From: Thermoanaerobaculia bacterium
GTDB taxonomy: Bacteria; Acidobacteriota; Thermoanaerobaculia; Multivoradales; Multivoraceae
DNA: 64,000 nt
Direction: 5' to 3'
NCBI GenBank assembly: GCA_963666565.1
Contig: OY762911.1
Location: forward strand, 3,200,001-3,264,000
Below, one piece after another: positions 24,555 through 40,927 of the stretch (positions within the stretch are counted from its first letter, which is position 1; every line of letters starts with the position of its first letter). The position numbers were made by a program, and so were the translations under genes. Under the pieces are notes generated by a model. The model was given only the letters and a program-made list of their open reading frames with translations. It was not told the origin of the DNA and ran no database searches.

Positions 24555-24707
24555 GTTGTTCCCGCCCCGTTTCCGCCGCGGGCGGGCGATTCGCCCTAAG
24601 TCGTTGACGCCGCTGACTTTCGCGCTGCGGGCCTGGAACCGGGGCGGCGGGGCTGCTACTCTGCCTCACCTTGCTCCGCGCGGGCGTTCTCGCCGGCGGA
24701 GATCCGT

Positions 24708-24794
24708 GCCGGAGTGGCGGAATGGCAGACGCAGGGGACTCAAAATCCCCCGCCCTGTGTGGGCGTGTGGGTTCGACTCCCACCTCCGGCACCA
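24708..24794 (+). tRNA. tRNA-Leu(CAA)
   Basis: GCCGGAG acceptor, anticodon arm GGGGA-CT-CAA-AA-TCCCC, long variable arm, GGTTCGACTC T-loop, encoded CCA. Confidence 0.95.
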
Positions 24795-25158
24795 ATGGCA
24801 CGCTGCGGAGAGGTCCCCTGCGGGGACTCGCAGCGTCCCCGGCGCCCTCAAGGGCGTGTGGGTTCGACTCCCACTTCCGGCACCAATGGCACGCTGCGGA
24901 GAGGTCCCCTGCGGGGACTCGCAGCGTCCCCGGCGCCCTCAAGGGCGTGTGGGTTCGACTCCCACCTCCGGCACCAATGGCACGCTGCGGAGAGGTCCCC
25001 TGCGGGGACTCGCAGCGTCCCCGGCGCCCTCAAGGGCGTGTGGGTTCGACTCCCACCTCCGGCACCAATGGCACGCCGCGGAGAGGTCCCCTGCGGGGAC
25101 TCGCAGCGTCCCCGGCGCCCTCAAGGGCGTGTGGGTTCGACTCCCACCTCCGGCACCA
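24795..25158 (+). repeat. 4 x 91-bp tandem repeat containing the 3' part of tRNA-Leu(CAA)
   Basis: Units at 24795, 24886, 24977 and 25068. Each ends GGGCGTGTGGGTTCGACTCCCACYTCCGGCACCA. Only single-base differences between units. Confidence 0.95.
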
Positions 25159-25182
25159 GCATCTGGACCCGGCTCAGCCGCC

Positions 25183-25225
25183 GACCCCTCCTGACCCAGG
25201 ACGGGCGGGTCCGTCCGACGCCGCT
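25183..25225 (+). repeat. Intergenic repeat family B copy
   Basis: 41/43 identical to 50544-50586; related to the inverted pair 36302-36328 / 36435-36461. Confidence 0.75.
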
Positions 25226-25242
25226 TCACGGCTTCCCCGGAT

Positions 25243-25266
25243 GCGGGTCAGAAGACCCGCGCACCC
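25243..25266 (+). repeat. REP-like palindrome family A copy (GCGGGTC-RGAR-GACCCGC-GCACCC)
   Basis: Also at 37386, 43125, 44354 (inverted), 44465 and 52646. Confidence 0.8.
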
Positions 25267-25277
25267 AGTGGGTGCGA

Positions 25278-26975
25278 TCAACTGTCGGCGTCGGCGTCGT
25301 CGACGAGGTCGATGCCCTCCTGGTCCAGCAGGACGCCGATGGCGCGGAAGTAGGCCAGCAGGGCGCGGCGGTAGTTCGTGATCGCTTCGACTTCGCGGCT
25401 GCGGGCGGCGGTCAGGTCCTCCTGGATCTCCAGGACCTGGAAGCTGGTCCACAGCCCGTTCTCGTAGCGCTTCTGGGCGGCGTCCAGGTTCTTCTCCGCC
25501 AGTTCGCGGGACACGCGGGCCGAGTCGATCTGCTTGCCTGCGGTCTCCACCCCGCGGGCGGCGGTCCGCACCTCCGTGCGGATCGTCAGCATCAGGTCCT
25601 GGAGTTCCAGGCGCCCCTGGTCGAGCGCCAGGTCGGCGATCCGGCTCTGGGCCCTCGCCGAGCGGTTCTGGAGCGGCTTCGACAGGTTCAGGCCGACCGT
25701 CCAGCCCTCGAACACCTGGCCGAGAATCCCGTCGTAGAACTGGCCCAGCGTGCTCAGGAAGTCGAGCGAGTCGGTCCGGACGTACTCCTCCGGGCAGGGC
25801 TCGAACAGGTCCGCGATGCTGGGCGGCCCGGGGCGCTCGCAGACCGTCCGGTCCCCGCCCAGGGCGTTCCGGCCGTAGCTCAGGCTCAGGTTCAGGTCGG
25901 GCATGCGCTGGTTGCGGAGGAAGGTCGAATCGACTTCCAGCGTTTCGATCCGCAGTTCCTGGCGGTCGATCTCGACCCGGCTCTGAAGCGCCGAACTCAG
26001 CGACGCCTCCAGGTCGATCGCCACCCGCTTGATCTCGGGCGACGTCGTCGGCACGATCTCCAGGTCCCAGAAGGAGCGTTCGTCCAGGTTCAGGAGCCGC
26101 CGCAGTTCGTCCGCCGCGTCCTGGATCTGCGCCTGGACCCGGATGATCTCCTCCTCCCGGGTCGCGATGCCGGCCTCGCTCTGGACGAGCTCCAGCGGCG
26201 CGAGCGTGCCGACCTCGATCTGGATGCGGTTCATCTCGTGCAGCTCGCGGGCGAGGGTGAGGCTCTCCTCGGCCACCTTCAGTTGTTCCAGGGCCTCGAC
26301 CAGTGCCCAGTAGCCGTTGGCCACCGTCTGCACCGTGTCGATCACCTGGACTTCCAGGTCGCCCATGCTGATGTCGCTGTTCAGCCGGGCGACGGCCAGA
26401 TTCCGCTCGGTGATCCGCCTGCCCCGGTTCCGCAGCAGCGGCTGGTTGAACGCGAACTCGAGACTCGAGCGCAGGCTGGGGTTGATGTCCGAGAACCGGG
26501 AGTTCGACGTGGAGCGGCTGTTCTGCCAGTTCATGGAGAAGCTGCCGCCCGAAGAGATCGGCTGCTGGAGTTCGACGTTCGCGACGATCGTCTCGTTCTC
26601 GGTGACCAGGGCGCCGTCGAGCTGCGACGCCGAGGGCCTGCTGTCGCTGTTGACGTTCGTGGTGACCCCGAGCGTCGTGTCGTAGATGCCGTACGCCTGG
26701 TTCACCTGGAACAGCGACTGGGAGCGCTGGTAGCGCTGGACGAGCAGGCCCAGGTTGTTCTGCAGGGCGATGGCGATCGCCTGGTCCAGTTCGAGCCGGA
26801 GGCGGCCGTCGGCGATGTCCAGATCGGGCGCGACCGGCTGGGTGATCCAGGTCGAACCGACCTGTACCTGACCCGCCGCCGGCGGTCCCGAGGACCCGGC
26901 CAGGACGAGGACGGTGCAGAGGGCGGCGATCGCCGCCGCGGACTTTCGGACGTTGCTTGCCGGGAACAGGTTCAT
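25278..26975 (-). CDS. TolC-family outer membrane efflux protein
   Basis: Signal peptide, LELDQAIAIALQNN, and repeated OEP motifs (EVGTLAPLELVQSE; RYENGLWTSFQVLEIQEDL). Confidence 0.9.
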   Translation of the reverse strand: MNLFPASNVRKSAAAIAALCTVLVLAGSSGPPAAGQVQVGSTWITQPVAPDLDIADGRLRLELDQAIAIALQNNLGLLVQRYQRSQSLFQVNQAYGIYDTTLGVTTNVNSDSRPSASQLDGALVTENETIVANVELQQPISSGGSFSMNWQNSRSTSNSRFSDINPSLRSSLEFAFNQPLLRNRGRRITERNLAVARLNSDISMGDLEVQVIDTVQTVANGYWALVEALEQLKVAEESLTLARELHEMNRIQIEVGTLAPLELVQSEAGIATREEEIIRVQAQIQDAADELRRLLNLDERSFWDLEIVPTTSPEIKRVAIDLEASLSSALQSRVEIDRQELRIETLEVDSTFLRNQRMPDLNLSLSYGRNALGGDRTVCERPGPPSIADLFEPCPEEYVRTDSLDFLSTLGQFYDGILGQVFEGWTVGLNLSKPLQNRSARAQSRIADLALDQGRLELQDLMLTIRTEVRTAARGVETAGKQIDSARVSRELAEKNLDAAQKRYENGLWTSFQVLEIQEDLTAARSREVEAITNYRRALLAYFRAIGVLLDQEGIDLVDDADADS

Positions 26976-27088
26976 CGGAGTGCGTTCCTTCCTTCGAGAG
27001 AGCCCCCGCCGCCGCGGGCGAGGCGCACCGTGTCTTCCTCTTTGACGCGAGAGGCGCGACGTTGTTTCAGCAACCCTACGCCGGATCT

Positions 27089-28705
27089 TCAGTCGTCGAT
27101 CAGTTCGAGCGCGATTCCCCGCGCTTCCTCGAGCGTGCCGGCGCGGCGATCCGGAGGAACGTCGCGGAGAATGTCGAGCGTCCCGAGAGTCCGTGCGACG
27201 GATCCGTCCAGACCGCAGACGACGACGCCGGTCCCCTCCGCCCCGGCGACGTCCAGCAGGCGCCGGATGACCATCGCCGCGCTGTCGTCCAGGTAGACGG
27301 CTTCCGAGAAGTCGAAGATGACGACCTCGTGGTCCTTGATGTCGCCGCCGATCACGGTCGACAGCTTGTTCGAGGAGGCGACCGTCAGGGTTCCCTTGAG
27401 CGCGACCAGGCCGACCCGCGCCGTGAACGGGTCGACCGCCGCCCGCTCCTCGCCTTCGCTGAAGAAGGTCCGGTCGAGCAGCGGCACGGAGACCACGCTG
27501 TCCAGTTCCAGACCCTCCAGCCGCCGGGCGTGCGCCATGCCGGCCGCGATCAGGCCGACGGCGACCGCCGTGACCAGGTCGACGAAGACCGTCAGGCCCA
27601 GCGTCAGCAGCATGACGAAGAGGTGCTCGCGGCGGATCCGGTGGACGCGGACGATCAGCGGCCAGTCGATGATGTCCCACCCCACCTTCATCATGATCGC
27701 CGCCAGCACGGCGTGGGGAATCGGCTCGACCAGCGGTCCCAGGCCGAGGGCGAGGAGCAGCAGGAAGATCGCCCGCAACGCCCCGGACACGGGCGTCGAG
27801 CCGCCGGCGCGGATGTTGACGACCGTACCCATCGTGGCGCCGGCGCCTGGCAGGCCCCCGACCAGCCCGGAGATCATGTTGCCGATGCCCTGGCCGACGA
27901 GTTCGCGGTTCGGCTTGTGGCGGGTGCCGGTCAGCGAGTCCGCCACCAGCGAGGTCAGCAGGCTGTCCACCGATCCCAGCAGGGCGAGAATCAGCGCGGG
28001 CTGGAACGCCTGGAGCAGGAAGGCCGCACTCGGCAGGCCGATCTTCAGCGTCGGCAGGCCGGTCGGCACCTCGCCCAGAACCGGCGCCCCCGTCAGCCAC
28101 AGGACGCCCATTGCCGAGCCGACCAGGAGGGCGAGCAGGGGTCCCGGCAGGAAACGCGCCAGTCTGCGCGGCCACAGGAAGCCCGCCGCGAGGGTGATCG
28201 CGCCGATCGCGACCGCGTCCAGGTTCGCCGCGCCCAGGGTCTCCGGAACGGCCCGGACGGCGCCCAGGGCCCCTCCCGGCGCGGGCGGCGCGCCGAGGAA
28301 CGGCAGGACCTGGATCAGGATGACGATGACGCCGATCCCGGACATGAACCCGGAGACGACGACGTAGGGCGTGTACACGACGAAGCGGCCGATCCTCGCC
28401 AGGCCCAGGAGCATCTGGAGCAGGCCGCCGAGAACGACGACGGTCAGCGCCTCCGTCAGGTTGGAGGCGTGGGTCGTCAGGATGACCGTCATGGCGACGG
28501 TCATCGGCGCCGTGGGGCCCGAGATCTGGGACCGCGTGCCGCCGAACACGGCGGCGAAGAAGCCCACCGCGATGGCCCCGTGCAGGCCCGCGACGGCGCC
28601 CATCCCGGAGGCCACGCCCAGCGCCAGCGCGACCGGCAGCGCGACGACGGTGGCGGTCAGCGCCCCGAACAGGTCGCCCCTGAGCGTCGCGGCGTCGTAC
28701 TTCAC
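27089..28705 (-). CDS. SulP/SLC26 family anion (bicarbonate/sulfate) transporter with STAS domain
   Basis: GDLFGALTATVVALPVALA, QISGPTAPM, NRELVGQG and C-terminal STAS (FDFSEAVYLDDS). Confidence 0.92.
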   Translation of the reverse strand: MKYDAATLRGDLFGALTATVVALPVALALGVASGMGAVAGLHGAIAVGFFAAVFGGTRSQISGPTAPMTVAMTVILTTHASNLTEALTVVVLGGLLQMLLGLARIGRFVVYTPYVVVSGFMSGIGVIVILIQVLPFLGAPPAPGGALGAVRAVPETLGAANLDAVAIGAITLAAGFLWPRRLARFLPGPLLALLVGSAMGVLWLTGAPVLGEVPTGLPTLKIGLPSAAFLLQAFQPALILALLGSVDSLLTSLVADSLTGTRHKPNRELVGQGIGNMISGLVGGLPGAGATMGTVVNIRAGGSTPVSGALRAIFLLLLALGLGPLVEPIPHAVLAAIMMKVGWDIIDWPLIVRVHRIRREHLFVMLLTLGLTVFVDLVTAVAVGLIAAGMAHARRLEGLELDSVVSVPLLDRTFFSEGEERAAVDPFTARVGLVALKGTLTVASSNKLSTVIGGDIKDHEVVIFDFSEAVYLDDSAAMVIRRLLDVAGAEGTGVVVCGLDGSVARTLGTLDILRDVPPDRRAGTLEEARGIALELIDD

Positions 28706-28812
28706 GCGGGAGACGCTCCGGCCCGCCGTTCGGGGGCTCCGTTTCGTCCTCTGGCGCTCATCCTCCCTCAGGTCCCCTCGGCCGGCGAACGCCATGCTAC
28801 ATTCCCGCCGCC

Positions 28813-29688
28813 ATGAACGTCCTCGAAGGCCTCCCCCGGCCCCGCCGCGGCAAGGTCCGGGACATCTACGACCTCGGCGACCGGCTGCTGCTGGTGGCCA
28901 GCGACCGGGTCTCCGCCTACGACTTCGTCCTCTCGCCGGAGATTCCCGGCAAGGGCAAGGTGCTGAACCAGTTGACCAACTTCTGGTTCGAGCGGCTCGG
29001 CGACGTCATCCCGAATCACCTGCTGGAGACGGACGTGCGCGGCTTCCCCGCCGAGCTCCAGCCGCACGCCGGCTACCTCGACGGGCGCTCCGTCCTGGTG
29101 CGGAAGGCGGAGGTCGTCCCCTTCGAGTGCGTGGCGCGCGGATACCTCGCGGGCAGCGCCTTCCGCGAGTACGAGGAGACCGGGCGCGCCTGCGGCCACG
29201 ACCTGCCGGCCGGGATGCGGCGGGCCGAGAAACTCGAGCGGGCGATCTTCACCCCGGCGACGAAGGCCGAGGAAGGCCACGACGAGAACATCGACTACGA
29301 GACCCTGGTCGAAGGCGTCGGCGAGGAACTGGCGGCGACCCTCCGCCGCGTGACCCTCGAGCTCTACGAGCGGGGGCGGGAACTCGCCGCCGGCCGCGGC
29401 GTGATCCTGGCCGACACGAAGTTCGAGTTCGGGCACGTCGAGGGCCGGCTCGTCCTGATCGACGAGGTGCTGACCCCCGACTCGTCCCGCTACTGGGACG
29501 CGGGCCAGTGGCGCCCCGGCACCGAGCCCGTCTCCTACGACAAGCAGCCCGTCCGCGACTGGGTCGCCGGCACCGGCTGGGACAAGGCCTCGCCGCCCCC
29601 CGAACTGACGCCCGACGTCGTCGCCGAAACGAGCGCACGCTACGTCGACGCCTTCCGGCGCGTCACCGGCCGCGACCCGGTCCTGTAG
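28813..29688 (+). CDS. purC: SAICAR synthetase
   Basis: GKVRDIY, SDRVSAYD, ECVARGYLAGS, ADTKFEFG and DEVLTPDSSRYW motifs. Confidence 0.97.
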   Translation: MNVLEGLPRPRRGKVRDIYDLGDRLLLVASDRVSAYDFVLSPEIPGKGKVLNQLTNFWFERLGDVIPNHLLETDVRGFPAELQPHAGYLDGRSVLVRKAEVVPFECVARGYLAGSAFREYEETGRACGHDLPAGMRRAEKLERAIFTPATKAEEGHDENIDYETLVEGVGEELAATLRRVTLELYERGRELAAGRGVILADTKFEFGHVEGRLVLIDEVLTPDSSRYWDAGQWRPGTEPVSYDKQPVRDWVAGTGWDKASPPPELTPDVVAETSARYVDAFRRVTGRDPVL

Positions 29689-29913
29689 CCGTCAGTACGT
29701 CGCCCGCCGGGTGCGCGCGTCCGCCATCCGTGCGAGCGTCGGTCGGGCGCACGGACCGGTTCACGGGCGGCGCGAAACGCGCCACCCGGGTGCCTGACCC
29801 GCTGCCGCCGAAGCCGGCCAGAGAGAACGCGCCGCGCAGCGGCGGCCTTGCCGGCGCGGCAGGCGGAGTTCCCCCTCAGCTACGTTGAGAAGCGATCTCG
29901 TTAGCATTGAGTC

Positions 29914-31074
29914 ATGACAGAACCGGCGAGCGAATCGCACTCGGCCAGCATCCGCACGCCGGAACGCCTCGACCGGGCGCTCACCGTCACCACGCCCAAG
30001 ACGTGGATCATGCTGGCGGCGCTGATCGCGGGGCTGGCGATCGTCGTCGCCTGGTCGATCCTCGGCGAGGTGGCGACCTAGGTCCGCGCGGACGGCATCT
30101 TCCTCAGCAGCGACGGCCAGGTCCTGGACATCGTCGCGACCTCCGGCGGCACGCTGAACCGGATCGTCCCCGAGGTCGGCGACATGCTTGCCGTCGGCGA
30201 CCTGGTGGCGGAGACCTTCGACGCCGGAGAGATGGAGCAGCGGCGCGGCGCCGCGGCCGCCGTCGAGGAGCGGCTGAAGGTCCTGCGCGAGCGGGAAGCC
30301 GCGGCCTGGGCCGAGAACGAGCTGTTCGAGCAGAACCTGAGGGAGCAGCGGGAGCGGCTCGGCAGGATGGTCGACGCGGGCAACGAGCTTCTGGCGAACG
30401 CCCGGGCGCGCCTGGAGGGCACCGAGCAACTCGCGGCCGAGGGCGAGTTCGCTCCCAACCTGAAGGGCGCCGGGCGCCGGCGCGTGCCGCCGGTGCTGCA
30501 GATGGAGTCGGTCGAGTGCGGCGCGGCCTGCCTCGGGATGATCCTCACCCACGGCGCGCTGATCTGGCTTCAGCGAACCCTGCTGGCCCGCATGGCGACC
30601 AAGCTCGCGATGGTCGCGTCGGTGCGGTTCGTCTGGCACGTCGTCAGCCTGCCGATGCAGTTCTTCAGCCAACGCAGCCTGGGCGACATCGCGTCCCGCA
30701 TCGCGTCGAACGACACGGTCGCGAGGCTGCTCTCGGACGGCCTGGCCGTCAACCTGCTCCGGGCGGCCGTCTACGGCGTCGCGATGTTCGCCTACGACGT
30801 CCCGCTGTCGCTGGCGGTGACCGCCTTCGTCGCCGTCAACCTGGTCGTCATGCGGCTCACCGCCCGGTACCGCGACATCGCGAACCGCAACGTGGTGAAG
30901 GACCACGGGCGCCTGGCCGGCGCGTCGGTCGCCGGCATCGACATGATCGAGACGCTCAAGGGCACCGGCGCCGAAGACGACTTCCTGGCGCGCCGGGCCG
31001 GCATCCAGGCGAACCTGCTGGGCGGCCAGCACCGGGTCGGCACCGTCGAGAGAGCGACGAGGACACGGAGGTGA
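29914..31074 (+). pseudogene. Chimeric remnant: NHLM bacteriocin secretion (HlyD-like) N-terminus fused in-frame to deleted C39-peptidase ABC transporter fragments
   Basis: TPERLDRALTVTTPKTW + TM, with an in-frame TAG at 30079-30081. Then PPVLQMESVECGAACL joined directly to an ABC membrane segment (FFSQRSLGDIASR, IETLKGTGAEDDF). Confidence 0.8.
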
Positions 31075-32473
31075 CGGCCGTCTACACGCCGACCGCGCTG
31101 CTGACGGACCGGCTCTGGCATGCGTTCGACCGCTTCGGCACGCTCGTGCTGAAGCTGGCGGCCGCAGCCGACGTCCGGGACGGCGAGGCGCTCGCCGAGC
31201 GGCGGCGCGCGCAGGCCGCTGGCGGCGGTGTTCTACGCGCCCCTGCCGGAGGTCGTCAAGGGCGTCGCGCAGCTCGCGCGCTTCGCCCTGCACGGCAGGT
31301 GGGCGGACGGCCGTGCCGCCGTCGCGAGCACGGTCCTCGGCGGGCTCGCCGCGATGGTCGCGCCGATCCTCACCGGGCAGTTCCTGACCGAGATCGTCCC
31401 GCGCGGCGAGGCGTCGGCCTGGCTGGCCGCGATCGGCGCGCTGGTCGCCGTCGCGCTCGGCAGCGGCGTCTTCCAGATCGTGCGCGGCCTGGCGATGCTG
31501 CGCATCCAGAGCCGGTTCGACCAGCGCGCGGCCGCTGCGGTCTGGGGCCGGCTGATGACGCTGCCGACCCGGTTCTTCCGGAACTACAGCGCCGGCGACC
31601 TGGCGCTCCGGGCCGGCGGCACGAACACGATCCGCCGGGCGCTCACCAGCGCCGGCGCCTCGGCTGCCACGGGCCTGGCCTCCACCGTGTTCAGCCTCGT
31701 GCTGCTCTTCTACCTCAGTTGGCCGATGGCGCTGCTGGTGACGTTCCTGCTGACCCTCCAGTCGGCGACGATGTGGCTGCTCACGCTCGGCAGGCTGCGC
31801 CACGAGCGCCGGAGCCAGCGCCTGGCGGGCGAACTGAACGGCTTCGTCCTCCAGGTGCTGCGCGGCCTCGCCAAGCTGCGCGTGGCTAACGCCGAGAACC
31901 AACTGCTGGACCGCTGGGCGCGCCAGTACGGCGAGTGGAGGCGGGAGAAGCTGGCCGGCGCGGACTGGACGGCGGCTGGCGAGGCCTTCATGGCGGCGGC
32001 GCAGCCGCTGACGCTGGTCGCGATCTTCGGCAGCGTCGTCTTCCTCGACGGGCACAACGTGGCGAGCCTGGACATGCACTCGGTGCGCGGCCGCGATCGA
32101 GGACGACATCCGGGCGATGCCGAAGGGCATGCACACGCGGCTCCCGGAAGGCGGCGCCGGTCTCTCGGTGGGCCAGAAGCAGCGCCTGCTCATCGCCCGG
32201 GCGCTGGCGCTCAAGCCGCGCGTGCTGCTCTTCGACGAGGCGACCAGCGCCCTGGACAACGGTTCCCAGGACGTCGTCCAGGAGTCGCTGAAGGACCTGG
32301 GCGTTACCCGGCTGGTCATCGCCCACCGCCTGAGTTCGATTCGCAACGTCGACCGCATCCACGTGCTCCAGGACGGCCGCGTCGTCGAGACCGGCGGCCA
32401 CGACGACCTGATGCGCCAGGACGGCGTCTTCGCGACGCTGGCCAGGCGGCAGTTGGTTCAGACGTCCGCCTGA
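31071..32473 (+). pseudogene. Deleted and frameshifted NHLM bacteriocin system ABC transporter (ATP-binding subunit)
   Basis: FYAPLP, FFRNYSAGDLA, GLAKLRVANAE and FLDGHNVASLD, then in another frame MPKGMHT...LSVGQKQR...FDEATSALD. Walker A is missing. Confidence 0.8.
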
Positions 32474-33672
32474 GGGCTCCCGCCGGTGCGCGGCAGGCGG
32501 CGGTTCAGGCCGCACCAGACCTCGTACGGCGCGACGCCGGCCCGCGCGGCCAGTTCGCCGACGTCGATCCGATCGCTCCCCTGTGAGCCGAGCAGAACGC
32601 ACTCGTCTCCCACCGCGACTCCGGGAACGCCGGTGACGTCGACGGTCAGCGAGTCCATGCTGATCCGGCCCGCGATCGGGCAACGCATCCCGCGGACCAG
32701 GACGTCGCCGCCGCCGAAGCCGGTGCTGAATCCGTCGCCGTAGCCGACCGGCACCAGGCCGATCGTCGCCTCAACCGGCGCCCGCCAGGTCCGACCGTAG
32801 CCGACCCCGGCGCCGGCCGGCACGCGGCGCAGGTCGACGATCGGCGCCCGGACGCTCATGACCGGCCGCAGTTCTACCGCCGGCGGCGTGCCGGCAGCGG
32901 CTAGCGTCGCGAGGTCGAGGCCATAGAGAGTGCCGCCGACCCGCACCGCACTCCATCGGTTTGACGTACGCCGCAGTGCGGCCGAAGAGTTCGCGAGGTG
33001 AGTGCTGACGGACCGCCGCTCCCTGGCGTCGAGAAGCTCCGCGGCGGCGGCAAAGCGGCGCTCCTGCTCGCCGGTGAAGGAACTTGCCGCGAAGTCGGAC
33101 TCGGCCAGGTGGGACATCAGCCCCGTCAGCCGGAGTTCCGGCGCGGCCCGCAGTTCCTCAAGCGCCGCCGGCCAGTCGCCCAGGTTCAGGCCCGACCGGC
33201 TCATGCCGGTGTCCAGTTCCACCACGACGTCCAGCGGCGGGCTTCTCCGGTCCGCGGCCGTGCCGCCCGCGACGCCCGGGCGGCGCCGGAGCGGAAGCCC
33301 CGGCCCCGGGAGTTTTCGCAGCCAAGCGACCCAGGCCGCGATCTGGCCCCGCCGGCAGAGTACCGGCGTCGCCTCCAGGCGGACGACCGACCTCAGATCC
33401 TCGAACGAGTCCACACCGCCGAACAGCAGCAGCGGGCCGACGCAGCCCGCCGCCCGAAGCTCCTCGACTTCGCGGATACGCGCCACCGCCAAGCCGTCGA
33501 TGCCGAGCCGCTCGAGTTCCAGGCCCACCGGGACCGCGCCGTGCCCGTAGGCGTCCGCCTTGACAACGCCGCAGACGGCCGCCCCGCCCACCGCCTCCCG
33601 CACCGCGCGCAGGTTGACGGCCAGCGCGCCGAGGTCGATCTCGACCCGCGCGACCGGGCCGATGGAGCTCAG
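32458..33672 (-). CDS. alr: Alanine racemase
   Basis: VVKADAYGHG, DTGMSR, MSHLA, VGYG and GRISMD motifs. Start probably CTG at 33672. Confidence 0.93.
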   Translation of the reverse strand: MSSIGPVARVEIDLGALAVNLRAVREAVGGAAVCGVVKADAYGHGAVPVGLELERLGIDGLAVARIREVEELRAAGCVGPLLLFGGVDSFEDLRSVVRLEATPVLCRRGQIAAWVAWLRKLPGPGLPLRRRPGVAGGTAADRRSPPLDVVVELDTGMSRSGLNLGDWPAALEELRAAPELRLTGLMSHLAESDFAASSFTGEQERRFAAAAELLDARERRSVSTHLANSSAALRRTSNRWSAVRVGGTLYGLDLATLAAAGTPPAVELRPVMSVRAPIVDLRRVPAGAGVGYGRTWRAPVEATIGLVPVGYGDGFSTGFGGGDVLVRGMRCPIAGRISMDSLTVDVTGVPGVAVGDECVLLGSQGSDRIDVGELAARAGVAPYEVWCGLNRRLPRTGGSPQADV

Positions 33673-35030
33673 TTCAGCCCCTCCGGCGCCTCGTGGTAGC
33701 CGTCGTAGTTGCGGAACGTCGTCGTGTCGCCGAGAAAAACGAGCCGCACGGAGCCGGTCTCGCCGTTCCGGTGCTTGGCGACGATCAGGTCGGCCAGGCC
33801 CTCCACGTCTGGATCCTCCGGCTCGTAGACCTCCTCCCGGTAGACGAACATGACGATGTCGGCGTCCTGCTCGATGTTCCCGGACTCCCGGAGGTCGGCA
33901 AGCTGCGGGCGGTGGTCCTTGCCCCGGCGCTCCGGCAGCCGCGACAACTGCGACAGGGCCACCACCGGCACCTCCAGTTCCTTGGCCAACTGCTTCAGGC
34001 CCCGGGTGATGGCGCCGATCTCCAGGTTCCGGTTCTCGTAGCGCCCGCCCGCGTTCATCAACTGGAGATAGTCGACCACCAGCAGCGCGAGACCGCTCTG
34101 CGCCTTCAGGCGCCGGGCCTTCGAGGCCACCTCCAGCAGCGACGGGTTGGCGGAATCGTCGACGAAAAGGGGCGAGTCGCGGCTGCTGTCCACCGCCTCG
34201 TGCAGGCGGCGCCAGTCCCGCGGCGACAACTGGCCGCCGCGCAGCCGGTGGAACGGAATGTCCGTCGTCGAGCACAGCACCCGCATGGCGATCTCGCGCT
34301 CGCTCATTTCCAGGGAGAAGAAGCCCGCGGCCCGGCCCTCCTGCTGGGCGACGTGGGCGGCGATGTTCAGGGCCAGGCTCGTCTTCCCCATCCCCGGCCG
34401 GCCGGCGACGATGACCAGGTTGCCGGGCTGCAGGCCGTGGGTCATCCGGTCCAGGTCGACGAAGCCGGTCCGCAGGCCGGGGAACTCGTTCGCGTTGCGC
34501 CGTTCGAGTTGCTCGATCGTCTCGCGGTAGATCTGGTCGAGCGGCACGAAGGTGCGGGACACCGCCTCCTCGCTCAGCTCCAGGACCTCCTGCTCCGCCC
34601 GCGCCAGGGCGTCCTGGGCCTCCAGGCCGCCGTCGAGCGCCGTCCGGTAGATCGTCGTGCAGGCGTCGATCAGGCGCCGCCGCAGGGCCCGTTCCTTGAT
34701 GATCTCGACGTAGCTGTCGACCCGGCCCAGGTCCGGCAGGTCCACCTCGAGGGTGGCGAGATAGGCCACGCCGCCAGCGGACTCGAACTCGCCCCGTTGC
34801 TCCAGGCGCGCCTGCACCGTGCGCAGGTCGATGGGACTCTCCGACTCCTGGAGCGCCAGCATCGCCTCGTAGAGCAGCCGGTGCCGCTCGAAGTAGTAGT
34901 CGGTCGGGTTCAGCCGGATCGAGGTGGCGGCCAGGTGCCGTTCCGAGTCGAGCAGGATCGCGGCCAGCACGGCGCGCTCGGACTCTTCGCTGTGGGGCAG
35001 GCTGTGAGTCTCTTCGACTGGCGCGCGCAC
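33669..35030 (-). CDS. dnaB: Replicative DNA helicase
   Basis: AGRPGMGKT, FFSLEM, VDYLQLM, LSQLSR and DLRESGNIEQDAD motifs. Confidence 0.97.
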   Translation of the reverse strand: MRAPVEETHSLPHSEESERAVLAAILLDSERHLAATSIRLNPTDYYFERHRLLYEAMLALQESESPIDLRTVQARLEQRGEFESAGGVAYLATLEVDLPDLGRVDSYVEIIKERALRRRLIDACTTIYRTALDGGLEAQDALARAEQEVLELSEEAVSRTFVPLDQIYRETIEQLERRNANEFPGLRTGFVDLDRMTHGLQPGNLVIVAGRPGMGKTSLALNIAAHVAQQEGRAAGFFSLEMSEREIAMRVLCSTTDIPFHRLRGGQLSPRDWRRLHEAVDSSRDSPLFVDDSANPSLLEVASKARRLKAQSGLALLVVDYLQLMNAGGRYENRNLEIGAITRGLKQLAKELEVPVVALSQLSRLPERRGKDHRPQLADLRESGNIEQDADIVMFVYREEVYEPEDPDVEGLADLIVAKHRNGETGSVRLVFLGDTTTFRNYDGYHEAPEGLN

Positions 35031-35168
35031 GTCTTCCTCCGAGGGGCTGGCCTAGCCTAGCCTTCGGCAGGTGCCGCCGGACACGCGGCTGCGGATCTTG
35101 CGGAGGCCCGTGCGAAGATCGAGCGGCGCCGCACCGGACCGAACCTGTGCCAGCCGCGCCTGAAGTCC

Positions 35169-36266
35169 ATGGACCGACGAACTCCGTTCGCGCCGCCCGC
35201 CTGGCTGGCGACGGCCTGCCTGGTCCTGTTGCTCGGCGCTCCGGCCGCAGCTCAGCCGCCCGAGGGCGAGGCGACCTCCGTGCCGGCCACCGAAGCGAAC
35301 GAAGCAGAGGCGGCCGAGGAACCCCACCCCTGCGCCTCCGAGTACCTGGAGGGCCGCTCCTGGATCGACTGGCTCAACCGGGGCCTCCACCGCACCGCCT
35401 GCGAAACCGCCCTCTGGTTCGACCACCTGTTCGGCGACTACCGTCTGGACGACGAACTGGAAGCGACTCACGGGCGCGCCATGTTCGGAGTCGTCTGGGA
35501 CGAGCAGGACGGCTTCGAGGACGATCTCCGGCTCCGCGCCCGCCTGCACTTCCCGATCGCGGAGCGGCGCTTCAACGCGTTCATCGGCCGCGACGACCGC
35601 GAGGACGTGCTGGAGGACGCCCAGCGCCGCGAGGCGGCCCCCCTGCCCCGGATGTTCGACCCGGAAGAAGACGAGTGGCTGGTGGGGCTCGGCTACCGGC
35701 CGATCTCGGGCGGCGCCGGCGACCTCGACTTCGATCTCGGCATCAACTTCAAGTTCCCCATGGAGCCGTGGGTCCGCGCCCGCTACAGGCACCGCACCTT
35801 CCTCTCGGAAACCAACCTGGTCCGGTTCCGGCACACGCTGTTCTGGGAACGGGAGGACGGCTGGGGCCTGGCGACCCGGATCGACTACGAGCACGCCTTC
35901 GCCGGCGGCGCGATGCTGCGTTGGCGCGGCGCCGGCAAGGTCTCGGACCTCACGCGGGGAACCGACTGGTTCACCGAGCTGAGCTACTACCACCGCCTGG
36001 GCCGCCGGCGCGCGCTTGCCCACCAGGTCGGCGCGAACGGCGAGACCGGCGCGCCGGTACTGGTCGAGAACTGGTTCGTGCGGTTCGTCTACCGCCAGCA
36101 AATCCTCCGGGAGTGGCTCTTCCTCGAGATCGGGCCCGGCATGGCCTGGCGCCGCGAGGAACCTGGCGAACCGAGGGACTCCGTGCCCATCCTCCGGTTC
36201 GGCGTCGAGATGCTGTTCGGCGACTACCGGGGCCAGGGCACCGCGGCGCCGGTGCCGGGCCGCTAG
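35169..36266 (+). CDS. Exported hypothetical protein, probable outer-membrane beta-barrel
   Basis: Signal peptide, alternating aromatic/hydrophobic strands, C-terminal FGVEMLF. Confidence 0.65.
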   Translation: MDRRTPFAPPAWLATACLVLLLGAPAAAQPPEGEATSVPATEANEAEAAEEPHPCASEYLEGRSWIDWLNRGLHRTACETALWFDHLFGDYRLDDELEATHGRAMFGVVWDEQDGFEDDLRLRARLHFPIAERRFNAFIGRDDREDVLEDAQRREAAPLPRMFDPEEDEWLVGLGYRPISGGAGDLDFDLGINFKFPMEPWVRARYRHRTFLSETNLVRFRHTLFWEREDGWGLATRIDYEHAFAGGAMLRWRGAGKVSDLTRGTDWFTELSYYHRLGRRRALAHQVGANGETGAPVLVENWFVRFVYRQQILREWLFLEIGPGMAWRREEPGEPRDSVPILRFGVEMLFGDYRGQGTAAPVPGR

Positions 36267-36301
36267 CGGCGCGGGCGGCGTCGGCGGCTGCCGCCCGTCT
36301 T

Positions 36302-36461
36302 GGGGCGGGAGGGGTCGGCGCCCAGGTGACGCGCGCGCTCGAGAGGAGATTGGAGGGGTTGCGCTTGCTCCGCTTCACTCGCTTCGGGCGGGCGTCGGTT
36401 GCCGGGAGGGCGCCGGCCGTCGCTCGTTCAGAGGCACCTGGACTCCGACCCCTCCCGCCCC
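36302..36461. repeat. REPIN/MITE-like element bounded by 27-bp inverted repeats (family B)
   Basis: 36302-36328 is the reverse complement of 36435-36461 at 25/27 positions. Confidence 0.65.
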
Positions 36462-36548
36462 GACTGGGCTGGACGGCGGTGCCGGGAGTCGGAGCGCCGT
36501 CGTCAGGCTAGAGTCCGGCCTCGAAACCGACGAGCGAGGATCACGGGA

Positions 36549-37334
36549 ATGAGCAGCACGACCACCCCCAGCGGCGAAGTGACGGTCACGGTCGGCGACG
36601 ACCTGGTCGCCGAGATCGAGATCCACCGGCCGCCGAACAACTTCTTCGACCTCGATCTGATCGGCGAACTGGCGACGGCGATCGGCGAGCTGGACGAACG
36701 GGACGACTGCCGTGCGGCCGTTCTCTGCTCGGAGGGCAAGCACTTCTGCGCCGGCGCCAACCTGAACGCGCGGCGGGACGCGACCGGCGCCGGCGGCGAG
36801 CGCCATCTGTACGACGAAGCGGTCCGGCTGTTCGACACGAAGACGCCGATCGTTGCGGCGGTCCAGGGCGCGGCGGTCGGCGGCGGCCTGGGACTGGCGC
36901 TGATGCCGGACTTCCGGGTCGCCTGCCCGGAGGCGCGCTTCTCCGCCAACTTCGCGCGCCTGGGCTTCGTCCAGGGATTCGGGCTGACCGTCACCCTGCC
37001 CCGCCTCGTCGGCCGTCAGCGGGCGATGGAGATGTTCTACACCGGCCGCCGCGTCAAGGGCGAGGAGGCGCTGCGGATCGGCCTCTGCGACGATCTCGTG
37101 CCCCAGAGCGAGGTGCGACCGCGGGCGCGGGAACTGGCCGCGGAGATCGCCACGTCCGCGCCGCTCGCCGTGCGTTCGATCCGCGAGATGATGCGCGGCC
37201 GGCTGGCCGCGGAGATCCGGACCGCCACGGACCACGAGAAGGCCGAGCAGAACCGCCTGCGGCAGACCGCGGACTTCGCGGAGGGCGTGCGGGCGATGAC
37301 GGAGCGGCGGCCGCCGCGCTTCGTCGGCGCCTGA
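36549..37334 (+). CDS. Enoyl-CoA hydratase/isomerase family protein
   Basis: HFCAGANL, AAVQGAAVGGGLGLAL and DFAEGVRAMTERRPPRF motifs. Confidence 0.9.
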   Translation: MSSTTTPSGEVTVTVGDDLVAEIEIHRPPNNFFDLDLIGELATAIGELDERDDCRAAVLCSEGKHFCAGANLNARRDATGAGGERHLYDEAVRLFDTKTPIVAAVQGAAVGGGLGLALMPDFRVACPEARFSANFARLGFVQGFGLTVTLPRLVGRQRAMEMFYTGRRVKGEEALRIGLCDDLVPQSEVRPRARELAAEIATSAPLAVRSIREMMRGRLAAEIRTATDHEKAEQNRLRQTADFAEGVRAMTERRPPRFVGA

Positions 37335-37434
37335 TCGGCGCCGGCCTGACGGCCGGCGCGTTCTTGTGGTCGCCTTCGGCGGCAAGCGGGTCAGAGGACC
37401 CGCGCACCCGGTGTGCGTCCGCCTGGAACCTGGG

Positions 37435-39363
37435 TCAGGCGCCGGCCGCCGACGCGATCAGGAAGGTCAGCCAGGCGCCCAGCCAGGCCAGGCCGTTCAT
37501 GTAGGCGAACGTGAAGGCGGGCCATCGCCAGCCTCCCGTCTCGCGCCGGATGACGGCCAGCGTCGACATGCACTGCATCGCGAAGGCGAAGTACACCAGC
37601 AGGGCGAGCGCCGAGGCCCGGGACAGGAGCGGCGGCGCGCCGCCTTCGCCGCGGCCGGCCAGCAGCACACCGAGCCCTTCGCCGCCCTCTCCCTCGTGGG
37701 CGTAGATCTGGGCCAGGGTGGCGACCATCACCTCGCGCGCGGCCTGCGAGGCGACCAGGCCGACGTTGATCCGCCAGTCGAAGTCCATCGGCGCGAAGAC
37801 GGGTTCCAGCAGCCGCCCGGCGGAGGCCGCGTAGCTCCCCTCGAGGACCATCTGCTGGTTCTCCGCGGCCGAGAGTTGCGGATCGGCCGGCCGCCGGGGC
37901 AGGTTGAGCAGAAACCAGAGGACGACGCTGGCGGCGAGGATGATCGTGCCGGCGCGGCGCAGGAACATCTTCGCCCGGTCCCAGACGCCGAGCGCGATGT
38001 CGCCGGGCCGGGGCAGCCGGTACGGCGGCAGTTCCAGGTAGAACGGCAGCGTCGCGCCTCGCAGCAGGCCGCGCTTGAAGACGGCCGCCGAGAGCAGCGC
38101 CGCGCCGGTGCCCAGGAAGTAGAGGCCGGTCAGCGACAGGCCCTGCCAGGTGAAGGGGCCGAAGGCCGGATCGGCCGGGATGAACGCGGCGATCAGCAGG
38201 ATGTAGACGGGCAGCCGGGCCGAGCAGGTTGCGAACGGCGCGACGAGGATCGTGGTCAGCCGGTCGCGCGGCGACGGGATCGTCCGGGTCGCCATGATGC
38301 CCGGAACGGCGCAGGCGTAGGAAGACAGGAGCGCGATGAAGCAGCGGCCCTCCAGCCCCACCCAGCCCATCGCGCGGTCGACCACGAAGGCGGCGCGCGC
38401 CATGTAGCCGCACGCCTCCAGGAACAGGATGACCGTGAACAGCAGCACGATCTGCGGCAGGAAGACGATCACCGCGCCGACGCCCCGGATCACGCCGTCC
38501 GCGACGAGGCGGGTCAGAGCCGTATCGGGCAGCGTCGCCAGGACCCGGTCGGCGAGCCCGTCCATCAGCCCCGAGAGGAGGTCCATGGCGGGCGTGGCCC
38601 AGGTGAAGATGGCCTGGAAGAAGAACGCGACGAACGTCAGGAAAACCGCGGCGCCGACGAACGGATGCAGCAGGAGGCGGTCCAGGCGCCGGGTCCAGCG
38701 ATTCGGTTGCGGCGACCGGCGGCGGCAGGCGCCGAGGACCTCGGCGGCCCAGGCGAAGCGTTCCTCCGGCGTCTTTGCCTCGGCGCCCCGCGCCAGGGCC
38801 GGCTTCGCCGTCCAGTCCCAGGGCTCGCTCAGCAATGCGCCGAGATCGTCGATGCCGATTCCCCGGTTGCCGACGACGCCGAGCACCGGCACGCCGAGCT
38901 GCCGCTGCAGGTCCTCGACGTCGATCTCGCCGCGCCGGGCCTTCAGCTCGTCGATCATCGTCAGGGCGACGGAGACCGGCAGGCCCAGGGCCGCCGCCTC
39001 GGCGAGCAACGGCAGGCCCCGCTCGATCGTCGTCGCGTCGACGACGACGACCACGCCGTCCGGCGGCGGCTCGCCGAAGCCGCCCCGCAGGACGCCCACC
39101 GCGACCGACTCGTCCTCCGACTGGGCTTCCAGGCTGTAGACGCCCGGCAGGTCGATCAGGCGGACCTCGCCGGCGCCGAAACGCTCGCGCAGATCGCCCT
39201 CGCGGCGGTCGACCGTGACGCCGGGGTAGTTCCCGGCCTTGGCCCGGTGGCCCGTGAGGGCATTGAACAGGGTCGTCTTGCCCGAGTTCGGCGCCCCCAG
39301 GATGGCGATGCGCTCCGGCCGGCGTGCCGCCGACGCCGACCCCAGCCGGACCAGCGCCGTCAT
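37435..39363 (-). CDS. feoB: Ferrous iron transporter B
   Basis: GAPNSGKTT, GNYPGVTV, DLPGVYSL, FLPQI, GYMARAAF, CSARLPVY and LELPPYRLP motifs. Confidence 0.96.
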   Translation of the reverse strand: MTALVRLGSASAARRPERIAILGAPNSGKTTLFNALTGHRAKAGNYPGVTVDRREGDLRERFGAGEVRLIDLPGVYSLEAQSEDESVAVGVLRGGFGEPPPDGVVVVVDATTIERGLPLLAEAAALGLPVSVALTMIDELKARRGEIDVEDLQRQLGVPVLGVVGNRGIGIDDLGALLSEPWDWTAKPALARGAEAKTPEERFAWAAEVLGACRRRSPQPNRWTRRLDRLLLHPFVGAAVFLTFVAFFFQAIFTWATPAMDLLSGLMDGLADRVLATLPDTALTRLVADGVIRGVGAVIVFLPQIVLLFTVILFLEACGYMARAAFVVDRAMGWVGLEGRCFIALLSSYACAVPGIMATRTIPSPRDRLTTILVAPFATCSARLPVYILLIAAFIPADPAFGPFTWQGLSLTGLYFLGTGAALLSAAVFKRGLLRGATLPFYLELPPYRLPRPGDIALGVWDRAKMFLRRAGTIILAASVVLWFLLNLPRRPADPQLSAAENQQMVLEGSYAASAGRLLEPVFAPMDFDWRINVGLVASQAAREVMVATLAQIYAHEGEGGEGLGVLLAGRGEGGAPPLLSRASALALLVYFAFAMQCMSTLAVIRRETGGWRWPAFTFAYMNGLAWLGAWLTFLIASAAGA

Positions 39364-39605
39364 GCGTCGGTCCGGCGGACGCGGATCCGCCGCGCCTCGG
39401 TCCGGCGCAGGCTGAGGAGCGCGCCCCGGAGCTCGTACATCGCCGGGTCGCCCAGCGGCGCCCGGCGCACGAACCGGACCGGCGCGCCGGCGCAGAAGCC
39501 GATCTCCCGGAGCCGCCTGCTTTCGGCGCCGTCGCCGCTCACCTCGGCGATCTCCACCGGCCGCTCGTCGCGGGCGTCCGACATGTCGGCCAGGGTCCGG
39601 TCCAT
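39360..39605 (-). CDS. feoA: Ferrous iron transport protein A
   Basis: RRLREIGF, RRAPLGDP and LSLRRTEA motifs. Confidence 0.92.
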   Translation of the reverse strand: MDRTLADMSDARDERPVEIAEVSGDGAESRRLREIGFCAGAPVRFVRRAPLGDPAMYELRGALLSLRRTEARRIRVRRTDA

Positions 39606-39664
39606 TTCGGACCGGGAATGTACCAGTTTCCTGAACCCCGCGACGCCGGCCGCTCAGCCGGCGA

Positions 39665-39859
39665 TCAGAGGTGCGGGTGGTTCTCGCAAGTGCACTGCGC
39701 CGAATTGCTGTACTCGCAATTGCAGCCCAACTGCAGGCACGGATCGGTATCCGGGCCGGGCCCGTCAGCCCCGAAGTCTTCGCCGCCAACGACGGTCTTG
39801 GCCTCGTCCTCCGACATCGGAGTCGGCTCGTTCCCGGTCCGGTCTTTCTCGTTCGCCAT
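39665..39859 (-). CDS. 64-aa double-glycine-leader, Cys/His-rich peptide (precursor B)
   Basis: GGAGGAG RBS. MANEKDRTGNEPTPMSEDEAKTVVGG|EDFGADGPGPDTDPCLQLGCNCEYSNSAQCTCENHPHL. Paralog of the adjacent ORF. Confidence 0.8.
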   Translation of the reverse strand: MANEKDRTGNEPTPMSEDEAKTVVGGEDFGADGPGPDTDPCLQLGCNCEYSNSAQCTCENHPHL

Positions 39860-39944
39860 CGCTACTCCTCCATCGGTTGGGGTTCGACGCTCGAAGGTGC
39901 GGACCGCCGGCCTGCCGACCGGCGCTCCGCCACTCAGTCGGCGG

Positions 39945-40151
39945 CTACATGGTGGTGTGCGAGTGTCCGTCGCAAGTGCATGCCGGCCCCCCATTCACCG
40001 TGCAAAAGCAGTCCGGCTCGTAGCACGGCTCCCCGCCGTCGAAGGGGTCTTCCACGGGGTCGGCATTGTTCTGCCCGCCGACGACGCCTTCGGCCTGATC
40101 GTCCGACATCGGGGTCGGCTGGTACCTGGTCCGGTCTTCGTTCTTCGCCAT
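39945..40151 (-). CDS. 68-aa double-glycine-leader, Cys/His-rich peptide (precursor A)
   Basis: GGAGGAGG RBS. MAKNEDRTRYQPTPMSDDQAEGVVGG|QNNADPVEDPFDGGEPCYEPDCFCTVNGGPACTCDGHSHTTM. Confidence 0.8.
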   Translation of the reverse strand: MAKNEDRTRYQPTPMSDDQAEGVVGGQNNADPVEDPFDGGEPCYEPDCFCTVNGGPACTCDGHSHTTM

Positions 40152-40347
40152 CGCTTCTCCTCCTCCGGTTAGGGGTTCCACACTCGAAGAGTCGACCTCA
40201 GGCTGGCCCGTCCAAGAGACGGTGAAGTACCTGTTAGGTGAGACTATACACGTGGTTTCTGATTCCAGAGACATTTCTGGGGCGGTTCGGGGGATGCGAC
40301 GCCGGGACGTGCCGCTGGCGGCGACTGGCGCGCCGTGTCGGGAACCG

Positions 40348-40623
40348 TGGTGCCGGAGGCGGGAGTCGAACCCGCATGGCCTAAGAGGGGCGCGGGAACG
40401 GGGCAAGTCCCCGCAGGGGACGTGCATGGCCGGGAGCCGTGGTGCCGGAGGCGGGAGTCGAACCCGCATGCCCTCAGAGAGGCGCGGGAACGGGGCAAGT
40501 CCCCGCAGGGGACATGCATGGCCGGGAGCCGTGGTGCCGGAGGCGGGAGTCGAACCCGCATGCCCTAAGAGGGGCGCGGGAACGGGGCAAGTCCCCGCAG
40601 GGGACATGCATGGCCGGGAGCCG
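40348..40623 (-). repeat. 3 x 92-bp tandem repeat containing the 3' part of tRNA-Leu(TAA)
   Basis: Units at 40348, 40440 and 40532. Each ends (sense) CATGCGGGTTCGACTCCCGCCTCCGGCACCA. Confidence 0.95.
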
Positions 40624-40712
40624 TGGTGCCGGAGGCGGGAGTCGAACCCGCATGCCCTCAGAGAGGGCGGAGGATTTTAAGTCCCCTGCGTCTGCCGTTC
40701 CGCCACTCCGGC
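40624..40712 (-). tRNA. tRNA-Leu(TAA)
   Basis: GCCGGAG acceptor, anticodon arm GGGGA-CT-TAA-AA-TCCTC, long variable arm, CCA. Confidence 0.95.
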
Positions 40713-40735: not shown

Positions 40736-40810
40736 TGGAGGCGACGGCCGGATTCGAACCGGCGAATAAGGGTTTTGCAGACCCTCGCCTTACCACTTGG
40801 CCACGTCGCC
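40736..40810 (-). tRNA. tRNA-Cys(GCA)
   Basis: GGCGACG...AGGGT-CT-GCA-AA-ACCCT...GGTTCGAATCC...TCCA. Confidence 0.95.
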
Positions 40811-40852: not shown

Positions 40853-40927
40853 TGGAGCGGGAAACGGGATTCGAACCCGCGACCCCAACCTTGGCAAGGT
40901 TGTGCTCTACCACTGAGCTATTCCCGC
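40853..40927 (-). tRNA. tRNA-Gly(GCC)
   Basis: GCGGGAATAGCTCAGTGGTAGAGC...TT-GCC-AA...TCCA; conserved Gly-Cys-Leu tRNA operon order. Confidence 0.96.

Follow-up and report, generated by a model that had tools for sequence, protein, structure and literature searches.

Stem-loop-headed repeat units in tandem arrays behind tRNA-Leu genes of Candidatus Multivorans, and their proposed origin by templated inverted duplication

Two tRNA-Leu genes in a 64,000-nt stretch (the window) of a Candidatus (Ca.) Multivorans (Acidobacteriota) genome, labelled G000 and 4,786,144 bp long, are each followed by a tandem array of repeat units. Every one of these units carries the same 16-mer, GTCCCCTGCGGGGACT, part of which is antisense to the parent tRNA. 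This raises the question of what the 16-mer is, how it came to stand in both arrays, and whether its complementarity to the tRNA serves any purpose. An initial annotation of the window offered two possible answers: that the tRNA trailer base-pairs with the pre-tRNA and switches its folding or maturation, or that a common fold-back or template-switch mechanism generated both arrays. The elements concerned are as follows.

24708-24794, + strand: parent tRNA-Leu(CAA), 87 nt, with encoded CCA (ARAGORN; Rfam tRNA, 56.7 bits)
24730-24739, + strand: CGCAGGGGAC in tRNA-Leu(CAA), read directly from the sequence
24795-24885, 24886-24976, 24977-25067 and 25068-25158, + strand: array 1, four 91-bp units, split after the acceptor ends
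24813-24828, 24904-24919, 24995-25010 and 25086-25101, + strand: 16-mer copies of array 1 (starts 24813, 24904, 24995 and 25086 in the window search), each a GTCCCC-TGC-GGGGAC hairpin followed by T
40624-40712, - strand: parent tRNA-Leu(TAA), last of a Gly(GCC)-Cys(GCA)-Leu(TAA) cluster (ARAGORN; Rfam)
40690-40681, - strand: CGCAGGGGAC in tRNA-Leu(TAA), read directly from the sequence
40623-40532, 40531-40440 and 40439-40348, - strand: array 2, three 92-bp units, split after the acceptor ends
40590-40605, 40498-40513 and 40406-40421, - strand: 16-mer copies of array 2 (window search)

The recurrence of the 16-mer is real and far from chance. The window holds seven exact matches to it, one per unit and all in the tRNA-sense orientation, as had been annotated, and the same seven are returned when two mismatches are allowed; 0.20 matches are expected in a shuffled window, and none of 100 shuffles reached seven. 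At up to one mismatch these seven are also the only matches in the whole of G000, all of them inside the arrays, so the 16-mer is not a dispersed repetitive extragenic palindromic (REP) element. One-mismatch variants that lie away from tRNAs in related genomes fall in unrelated, mostly coding-looking sequence. Tandem Repeats Finder describes array 1 as 4.4 copies with a period of 91 bp and 99% matches (24761-25158), and array 2 as 3.6 copies with a period of 92 bp and 95% matches (40339-40670).

The opening 10 nt of the 16-mer, GTCCCCTGCG, are indeed the exact reverse complement of CGCAGGGGAC, which in both tRNA-Leu genes covers tRNA positions ~23-32 (the D-stem 3' strand, nt 26, the anticodon-stem 5' strand and C32). 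Its last 7 nt had been read as the sense anticodon-stem strand. While the sense orientation holds, the stretch is in fact 8 nt long, as the base after the final T of the 16-mer matches the wobble base of the respective parent (GGGGACTC in CAA units, GGGGACTT in TAA units). The 16-mer is a stem-loop at the head of the unit, with a 6-bp stem (GTCCCC/GGGGAC) and a 3-nt loop, TGC, and its 3' arm is the anticodon-stem strand of the tRNA. Its predicted energy is -9.1 kcal/mol. The pairing of GTCCCC with GGGGAC by itself accounts for six of the ten antisense bases, and G10 also belongs to the sense arm. As a result, only the loop TGC represents extra complementarity to the tRNA.

Each unit (~91 bp) combines a non-conserved leader, the hairpin, a wrecked anticodon loop and an intact variable arm, T arm and acceptor 3' strand. 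In CAA units the order is an 18-nt leader, GTCCCC-TGC-GGGGAC, TC, GCAGCG, TCCCC, GG, variable arm, T arm, acceptor 3' strand and ACCA, with GCAGCG replacing the AAAA of the tRNA and the loop of the variable arm changed; the T arm, acceptor 3' strand and ACCA are identical to those of the parent. TAA units follow the same plan, with the leader CGGCTCCCGGCCATGCA(T/C), TT after the hairpin, an altered loop GCCCCGT and the T arm of their own parent. In tRNA numbering, a Leu unit consists of its leader, a 9-nt reverse complement of positions 24-32 and a sense copy running from position 27 to the 3' end, in which the anticodon loop is destroyed past position 34 or 35. The leaders have no detectable tRNA homology, and the leader and post-hairpin strings occur in the arrays and nowhere else in G000. 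A reading of the leader as a shrunken D arm (GCG-GAA-CGC), which would make each unit a near-full-length pseudogene, was dropped for the Leu units after a shuffle test (0/36 leaders at p<=0.05, median p 0.46). Arg units do retain D-arm strings (TAGAGCGT, GATAGAGCGG).

Arrays of this kind extend beyond the two tRNA-Leu genes of the window. G000 itself carries two more, behind tRNA-Ser(TGA) (three units of 99 bp) and tRNA-Arg(ACG) (one unit of 85 bp). We surveyed all 42 Ca. Multivorans genomes with a generic search pattern, which called for two T-arm/CCA ends separated by 55-85 nt, inspecting every match and tallying by hand from the listed matches. Unit arrays were found in 36 of the 42 genomes, with Leu-CAA carrying one in 28, Ser-CGA in 16, Ser-TGA in eight, Leu-TAA in four, Arg-CCT in two, and Leu-TAG and Arg-ACG in one each; the pattern is blind to Leu-TAA arrays without an encoded CCA, and further such arrays exist. 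No array was detected by this pattern in G003, G008, G012, G024, G025 and G062. Where an array is present it holds from one to at least 10 units (the latter behind Ser-TGA in G002), giving a range of 0 to at least 10 when all genes are counted. All seven array-bearing tRNA species belong to Leu, Ser or Arg, which by our own count make up 13 of the ~46 tRNA species of G000; the rough hypergeometric chance of seven out of seven is ~3e-5, assuming independent gains. Literature searches returned no description of such arrays in bacteria and, as far as these searches reach, this multi-locus, genus-wide spread limited to Leu, Ser and Arg is new. The remaining matches were ordinary adjacent tRNA genes, bar one short T-arm palindrome after tRNA-Val(GAC) in two genomes (G033:C1:806400-807300 and G063:C1:3679857-3679991), where GGGTTCGAGTCCGCTCGAACC directly after the gene is a partial T-arm copy made into a perfect 8-bp palindrome (GGTTCGAG/CTCGAACC).

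Comparison of these arrays shows the hairpin rebuilt from the sequence of each parent tRNA. In the Ser-TGA units of five genomes, GACCGGTGC is the exact reverse complement of GCACCGGTC in the tRNA (positions 24-32) and is followed by CCGGTCTTG; the Ser-TGA units of G000 read GACCGTTGA plus GCACCGGTC, a palindrome almost without a loop. Ser-CGA units carry palindromes on GGCGGTCTC in several registers: CCCC directly followed by GGGG in G015, 6-bp stems with other loops in G035, a 7+1+7 palindrome in G029 whose sense arm has itself changed T->C to match, and, longest of all, GAGACCGCC-G-GGCGGTCTC (9+1+9) in one G064 unit. Taken one base further (CGAGACCGCC), this longest arm copies G35 of the parent anticodon, which is missing from the unit's own sense copy, and this argues that the arm was templated from tRNA-like sequence. 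The Arg-ACG unit has GTCCG-CA-CGGAC on the anticodon, and in the Arg-CCT units the parental TGGATTCCT has become GGGATTCCC, a complementary double change that adds a pair to the palindrome. In the tRNA-Leu(TAA) of the window the 3' stem strand is TCCTC, yet the unit arm is GTCCCC, a mismatch which speaks against a sense copy of the 3' strand and marks the arm as antisense to the 5' strand. Finally, in G032 the tRNA-Leu(TAA) has GCAGAGGAC in place of GCAGGGGAC and the unit reads GTCCTCTGCGAGGAC, with both arms of the hairpin changed, so that hairpin and tRNA covary in a relative whose tRNA-Leu differs. With the same geometry recurring at Ser-TGA (GACCGGTGC + CCGGTC), Ser-CGA and Arg-ACG, and with the tRNA change tracked in G032, the common fold-back or template-switch origin emerges as the better supported of the two initial proposals.

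What has been preserved in the units is the stem. Among 51 distinct Leu units from the window and from the loci of relatives, GTCCCC/GGGGAC is present in 49; one of the other two is the compensated G032 unit and the other a decayed terminal partial unit. The loop varies (TGC in 43 units, TGTC in four, TGAA in two and GGC in two). The 41 distinct Leu leaders share a mean pairwise identity of 0.39 over their last 14 nt, near the ~0.29 that we calculate for 70% G+C and indicating saturation, as against 0.985 for the hairpin. In two decayed G002 units the T arm is broken and the stem is kept. Retention of the stem, where loop and leader are free to change, speaks for a cis-acting hairpin and not for a need for the contiguous antisense 10-mer, and points to a hairpin that acts in cis, either in RNA or in single-stranded DNA. 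The variable stem CGCCC/GGGCG, found in 39 of 48 distinct Leu units, encloses 27 different loops.

Based on these comparisons we favour, with moderate confidence, the reading that the 16-mer is a stem-loop heading each unit in an array of truncated tRNA-gene pseudo-copies which arose by templated inverted duplication; that the copies are tandem and evolve in concert; that the stem is under constraint in cis; and that the antisense match is a by-product. The inverted arm would have come from a template-switch event of the fold-back or quasi-palindrome type that copied an adjacent tRNA-derived strand, the template being the CGCAGGGGAC region. Arrays would then lengthen and shorten by unequal crossing-over or slippage, and exchange with a parent gene under purifying selection would keep the 3' parts of the units tRNA-like. 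The likeliest reason for the cis constraint is that, in a co-transcribed 3' trailer, the hairpin would lock away the anticodon-stem strand of the copy, so that each copy would fold compactly into hairpin, variable arm and T arm in place of a tRNA-like anticodon arm. The complementarity to the real tRNA would be a product of how the hairpin was made and not its purpose. Template switching homogenises and expands inverted-repeat arms, according to three papers (PMC7202029, PMC8604942, PMC13100816).

The proposed exchange with the parent gene leaves a recognisable pattern. Where the Leu-TAA gene has no encoded CCA, the units also have none and repeat about the first 9 nt of the trailer, and T-arm variants of the parent gene of each genome are mirrored in its units. 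Concerted evolution with a gene under purifying selection predicts exactly this tracking. Within the genus, the CCA of tRNA-Leu(TAA) is encoded in some species and absent in others.

Several results weigh against this interpretation. It gives no reason for the limitation to Leu, Ser and Arg. Under neutral template switching the paired arms would be free to change in step with each other, so that the near-invariance of the Leu stem would call for selection or for anchoring to the tRNA. The sole Leu-TAG unit (G016) retains a loop of 7 nt without a hairpin of this type, and in one G021 Ser-TGA unit the hairpin is shifted to just upstream of the anticodon-stem strand. When tRNA-Leu(TAA) is co-folded with its unit 1, a 10-bp duplex with the tRNA is predicted (P ~0.95). 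Co-transcription, together with any role of the units at the RNA level, is something that we infer. There are no terminator-like sites in 24400-25400, and the hairpin, followed by TC or TT and then GC-rich sequence, has no U-tract or T-run after it, which also removes an intrinsic terminator as a candidate. The leaders add no more predicted stability than shuffled leaders (mean z +0.23, 44 units) and take part in no larger conserved fold. The RNAalifold consensus consists of hairpin, variable arm and T arm only, and a candidate helix extended by leader and post-hairpin sequence was rejected on this consensus and on the equal folding of shuffled leaders; in a column-pair scan the leaders aligned poorly across units.

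Of the alternatives, a role for the units as small RNAs survives best. The units could be genes for small tRNA-like RNAs, cut from the tRNA precursor like the rtT RNA of Escherichia coli and serving in trans in a role such as sponging or the mimicry of uncharged tRNA; from the sequence evidence we think this possible but on balance unlikely. It would fit the conservation of structure while sequence turns over (hairpin stem, variable-arm stems and T arm), the persistence of units across a genus whose neutral leader positions are saturated, and the E. coli precedent, which has an annotated RNA. A permissive cmscan fits the CAA units weakly to the tRNA-Sec cloverleaf (26.8-28.7 bits against a gathering score of 47). 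However, units are missing at these genes in some genomes and vary widely in copy number, the acceptor 5' strand is not conserved, so that the usual RNase P substrate is missing, and the 3' conservation is explained by exchange with the parent gene. No Rfam family matches the units at gathering score in the window, and at E<=1 the region 24650-25250 gives only tRNA-clan matches and one weak plastid untranslated-region match. Functional tRNA gene copies were rejected as well: ARAGORN calls no unit, the cmscan scores lie below gathering, and the leaders have no significant match to tRNA positions 1-26.

A related and rather improbable view would make the units lineage-specific, tRNA-templated RNA modules with two stable states, one the cis hairpin and the other a duplex of 9-10 bp in which the D/anticodon junction of the parent tRNA takes part. 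Each module would also bear a tRNA-like 3' domain, and jointly the units would set the folding, maturation or availability of certain Leu, Ser and Arg tRNAs, or mimic the uncharged form, with copy number as an evolvable dial.

The initial annotation also proposed that the trailer acts as a folding switch. Here the 5' arm of the unit would pair with positions 23-32 of the real tRNA within the precursor, unfolding the D and anticodon stems and tuning maturation or yield. Folding models speak for it in that the 10-bp duplex is predicted at -20.4 kcal/mol against the value for the hairpin given above, and in that the TAA array favours the long-range duplex as described. The loop TGC, which lengthens the complementarity, is present in the 43 Leu units noted above and in Ser-TGA units of five genomes. 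The CAA array behaves in the opposite way, as tRNA-Leu(CAA) with its unit 1 is predicted to form the cis hairpin with P ~1 and long-range pairing with ~0.002, in a model that takes no account of co-transcriptional folding or of tRNA tertiary structure. With opposite folds for the two arrays, thermodynamics alone cannot settle the idea, and co-folding one unit with its pre-tRNA yields a divided answer. What counts against the switch is the pattern of change: the loops TGTC, TGAA and GGC reduce the complementarity in 8 of 51 units with the stem intact throughout, a G023 Ser-TGA unit has its hairpin extended to 9 bp by bases that do not match the tRNA, the G021 hairpin lies outside the anticodon-stem strand, and several genomes have no units at these genes. 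We consider the switch quite improbable, and the pairing claim did not find support.

Origin by retro-copying would replace the template switch of our favoured reading with a reverse transcriptase that copied the tRNA from its 3' end, came to a halt at about position 24 and primed second-strand synthesis by snapping back, the resulting hairpin DNA being inserted behind the gene. Snap-back priming would yield exactly a minimal loop followed by a sense copy. In addition, the main array families, Leu-CAA, Leu-TAA, Ser-TGA and Ser-CGA, all have A36-A37-A38 and the lesions in the units lie at positions 35-38, where bulky modifications of A37 disturb reverse transcriptases. G000 has one RVT_1 match above the family cut-off (G000:C1:378700-379110, 35.9 bits, in a 367-amino-acid frame); this reverse-transcriptase-like frame is 2.8 Mb distant. 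The fold-back point varies, from 24 or 25 in Leu and Ser to 34 in Arg-ACG. The absence of CCA from the units wherever the gene lacks it, together with their share of the gene's trailer, argues against retro-copies of a mature tRNA, although later homogenisation could mask such an origin. We regard it as highly unlikely.

It is extremely unlikely that the units are scars or decoys of integrase attachment (att) sites, each a left-over attR-type junction: like att sites, they do duplicate the tRNA 3' part, the genes affected are all of Leu, Ser or Arg tRNAs (favoured integration sites), and other families of the order have partial 3' matches kilobases apart, as expected for islands, but only ~40 nt of filler separates the copies, the flanks are syntenic with no element between (no genome-wide integrase search was made), the anticodon loop of the copies differs from that of the tRNA, which a crossover site would not allow, and no viral contig matches. 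Simple att duplication by an integrative element was rejected on the same filler, flanks and anticodon loop. Viral contigs gave 0 matches to the units, and of seven matched stretches in metagenome contigs one was a true unit, of a type already among those described here; a phage or other mobile origin was rejected accordingly. Split tRNA halves were discarded since G000 has the 5' 15-mers of Leu, Ser-TGA and Arg-ACG in its full genes and nowhere else, as was a clustered regularly interspaced short palindromic repeat (CRISPR)-like array, whole units being 95-99% identical with no unique spacers.

Outside the genus, a tRNA-Leu(CAA) query of 121 genomes of the order, in which Leu-CAA alone was covered, gave mostly two matches; in five genomes inspected for extra partial matches, the copies were dispersed and none stood in tandem. 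The generic tandem pattern found no unit in five more genomes, both other genera of the family included. A dense run of close tRNA-like ends at G096:C35:468189-469585, in another family of the order, resembles a tRNA gene cluster.

On comparison of the surrounding sequence, the units are insertions in a stable, syntenic context. Downstream of array 1 lies a convergent gene for an outer-membrane efflux protein (Pfam OEP), which keeps its place behind the array in every relative; in G003 and G008, where the hairpin is missing, the distance between the end of tRNA-Leu(CAA) and the stop of this gene is 24 and 5 nt, respectively. The genes downstream of the Leu-TAA and Ser-CGA arrays are likewise conserved, the flanks including a gene starting ATGGATCG.. 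and one encoding MKRTYQPN.., which we take to be rpmH. The short-read contigs of four runs break at the array. The convergent tRNA-Leu genes with their arrays (24708-25158 and 40348-40712) form inverted repeats enclosing ~15.2 kb, and the convergent pair is kept in relatives with a spacing of ~10-12 kb. Ectopic exchange between the arrays could be a cause of the hairpin shared by both. The cluster mates of tRNA-Leu(TAA) are:

40853-40927, - strand: tRNA-Gly(GCC) (ARAGORN)
40736-40810, - strand: tRNA-Cys(GCA) (ARAGORN)

Other repeats of the region and genome are distinct from the units. A dispersed REP or bacterial interspersed mosaic element (BIME) was rejected as the identity of the 16-mer, which has just seven copies, all in two arrays; the true REP-like element of G000, with the 16-mer core GAAGACCCGCGCACCC, has 628 (297 on the + and 331 on the - strand). 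The additional ~120 nt that separate the efflux gene from the last CAA unit are taken up by one REP-like copy (25159-25277), and a 25-nt version of the element forms 3.7 perfect tandem repeats at 44473-44565. Contig depth summed over 25214-25287 is more than 100x that of the flanks. At 46068-46751 there are imperfect tandem repeats with periods of 45, 51 and 102 bp and 65-79% matches. A general rule that tRNA trailers are antisense to positions 24-32 was rejected, as matches of this kind were confined to the two Leu arrays in a comparison of 45 CCA-ended tRNAs of G000. In a few cases the trailer is instead antisense to the 3' end of its own tRNA, as behind tRNA-Gly(TCC) (14 nt, G000:C1:279172 region), tRNA-Glu(CTC) (10 nt, 1137480) and tRNA-Met (9 nt, 1250038), which suggests that inverted copying of tRNA sequence into trailers is common in G000.

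If the hairpin is merely a mutational by-product, the arrays would be a clean natural record of templated inverted duplication and of an essential gene evolving in concert with its pseudo-copies. They would further illustrate that junk beside a parent gene can go on looking functional through selection on that gene, which calls for caution where conservation is read as function. Should the units be produced as RNA, they would constitute a second family of tRNA-linked repeat RNAs, far more widespread in its genus than the long-unexplained rtT of E. coli, and the variation in copy number and sequence across the 42 genomes makes this question testable. The restriction to Leu, Ser and Arg points either to some feature of the genes themselves or to a factor acting on the tRNAs.

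The initial annotation knew of no described element with this layout, which proved too strong. The closest precedent in layout, by analogy, is provided by the tyrT/tyrV repeats of E. coli and the rtT RNA (rttR). The tyrT repeat is described as 178 bp x 3.14. In E. coli K-12, three 178-bp units follow tyrV and one lies between tyrT and tyrV; each closes with AATCCTTCCCCCACCACCA, the 19 3'-terminal nt of tRNA-Tyr including CCA, and has within it GGGGAAGGAT, an antisense match to this terminus, and rttR is annotated on the first unit. As here, tandem direct repeats stand right behind a tRNA gene in the same orientation and end in the tRNA's 3' terminus including CCA. In contrast, 19 nt of the tRNA are copied there and ~50 nt (positions 27-76) here; the antisense stretch there hits the acceptor/T-stem end and does not adjoin its partner, whereas here it corresponds to the D/anticodon junction; and one locus is involved there as against at least seven tRNA species here, with no sequence relation between the two (the window has no match to the rtT RNA family in sequence or structure). 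The rtT RNA has a part in processing of the tyrT transcript and probably in the stringent response, according to a preprint.

Array 2 forms the trailer of a tRNA cluster whose gene order, Gly-Cys-Leu(TAA), is that of glyW-cysT-leuZ in E. coli. The 3' external transcribed spacer of the latter is a sponge for small RNAs (sRNAs) and a precedent for functional tRNA trailers; we know of no repeats or tRNA-derived hairpin in that spacer, nor of a partner sRNA for the array described here. Duplications at island att sites resemble the units in placing a direct repeat of the tRNA-gene 3' part downstream of an intact gene, but here the copies are ~90 bp apart and tandem, carry no cargo, and have a rebuilt 5' hairpin and an altered anticodon loop. 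Quasi-palindrome template switching is a mutational process and not an element, and leaves the tandem arrays, the persistence of the stem and the restriction to Leu, Ser and Arg unaccounted for. Nevertheless, in the papers that describe it, one arm is made identical to the other, or longer, by copying it, giving multi-base 'compensatory' changes, and such a process fits the 9+1+9 palindrome and the double changes in the Arg-CCT and G032 units.

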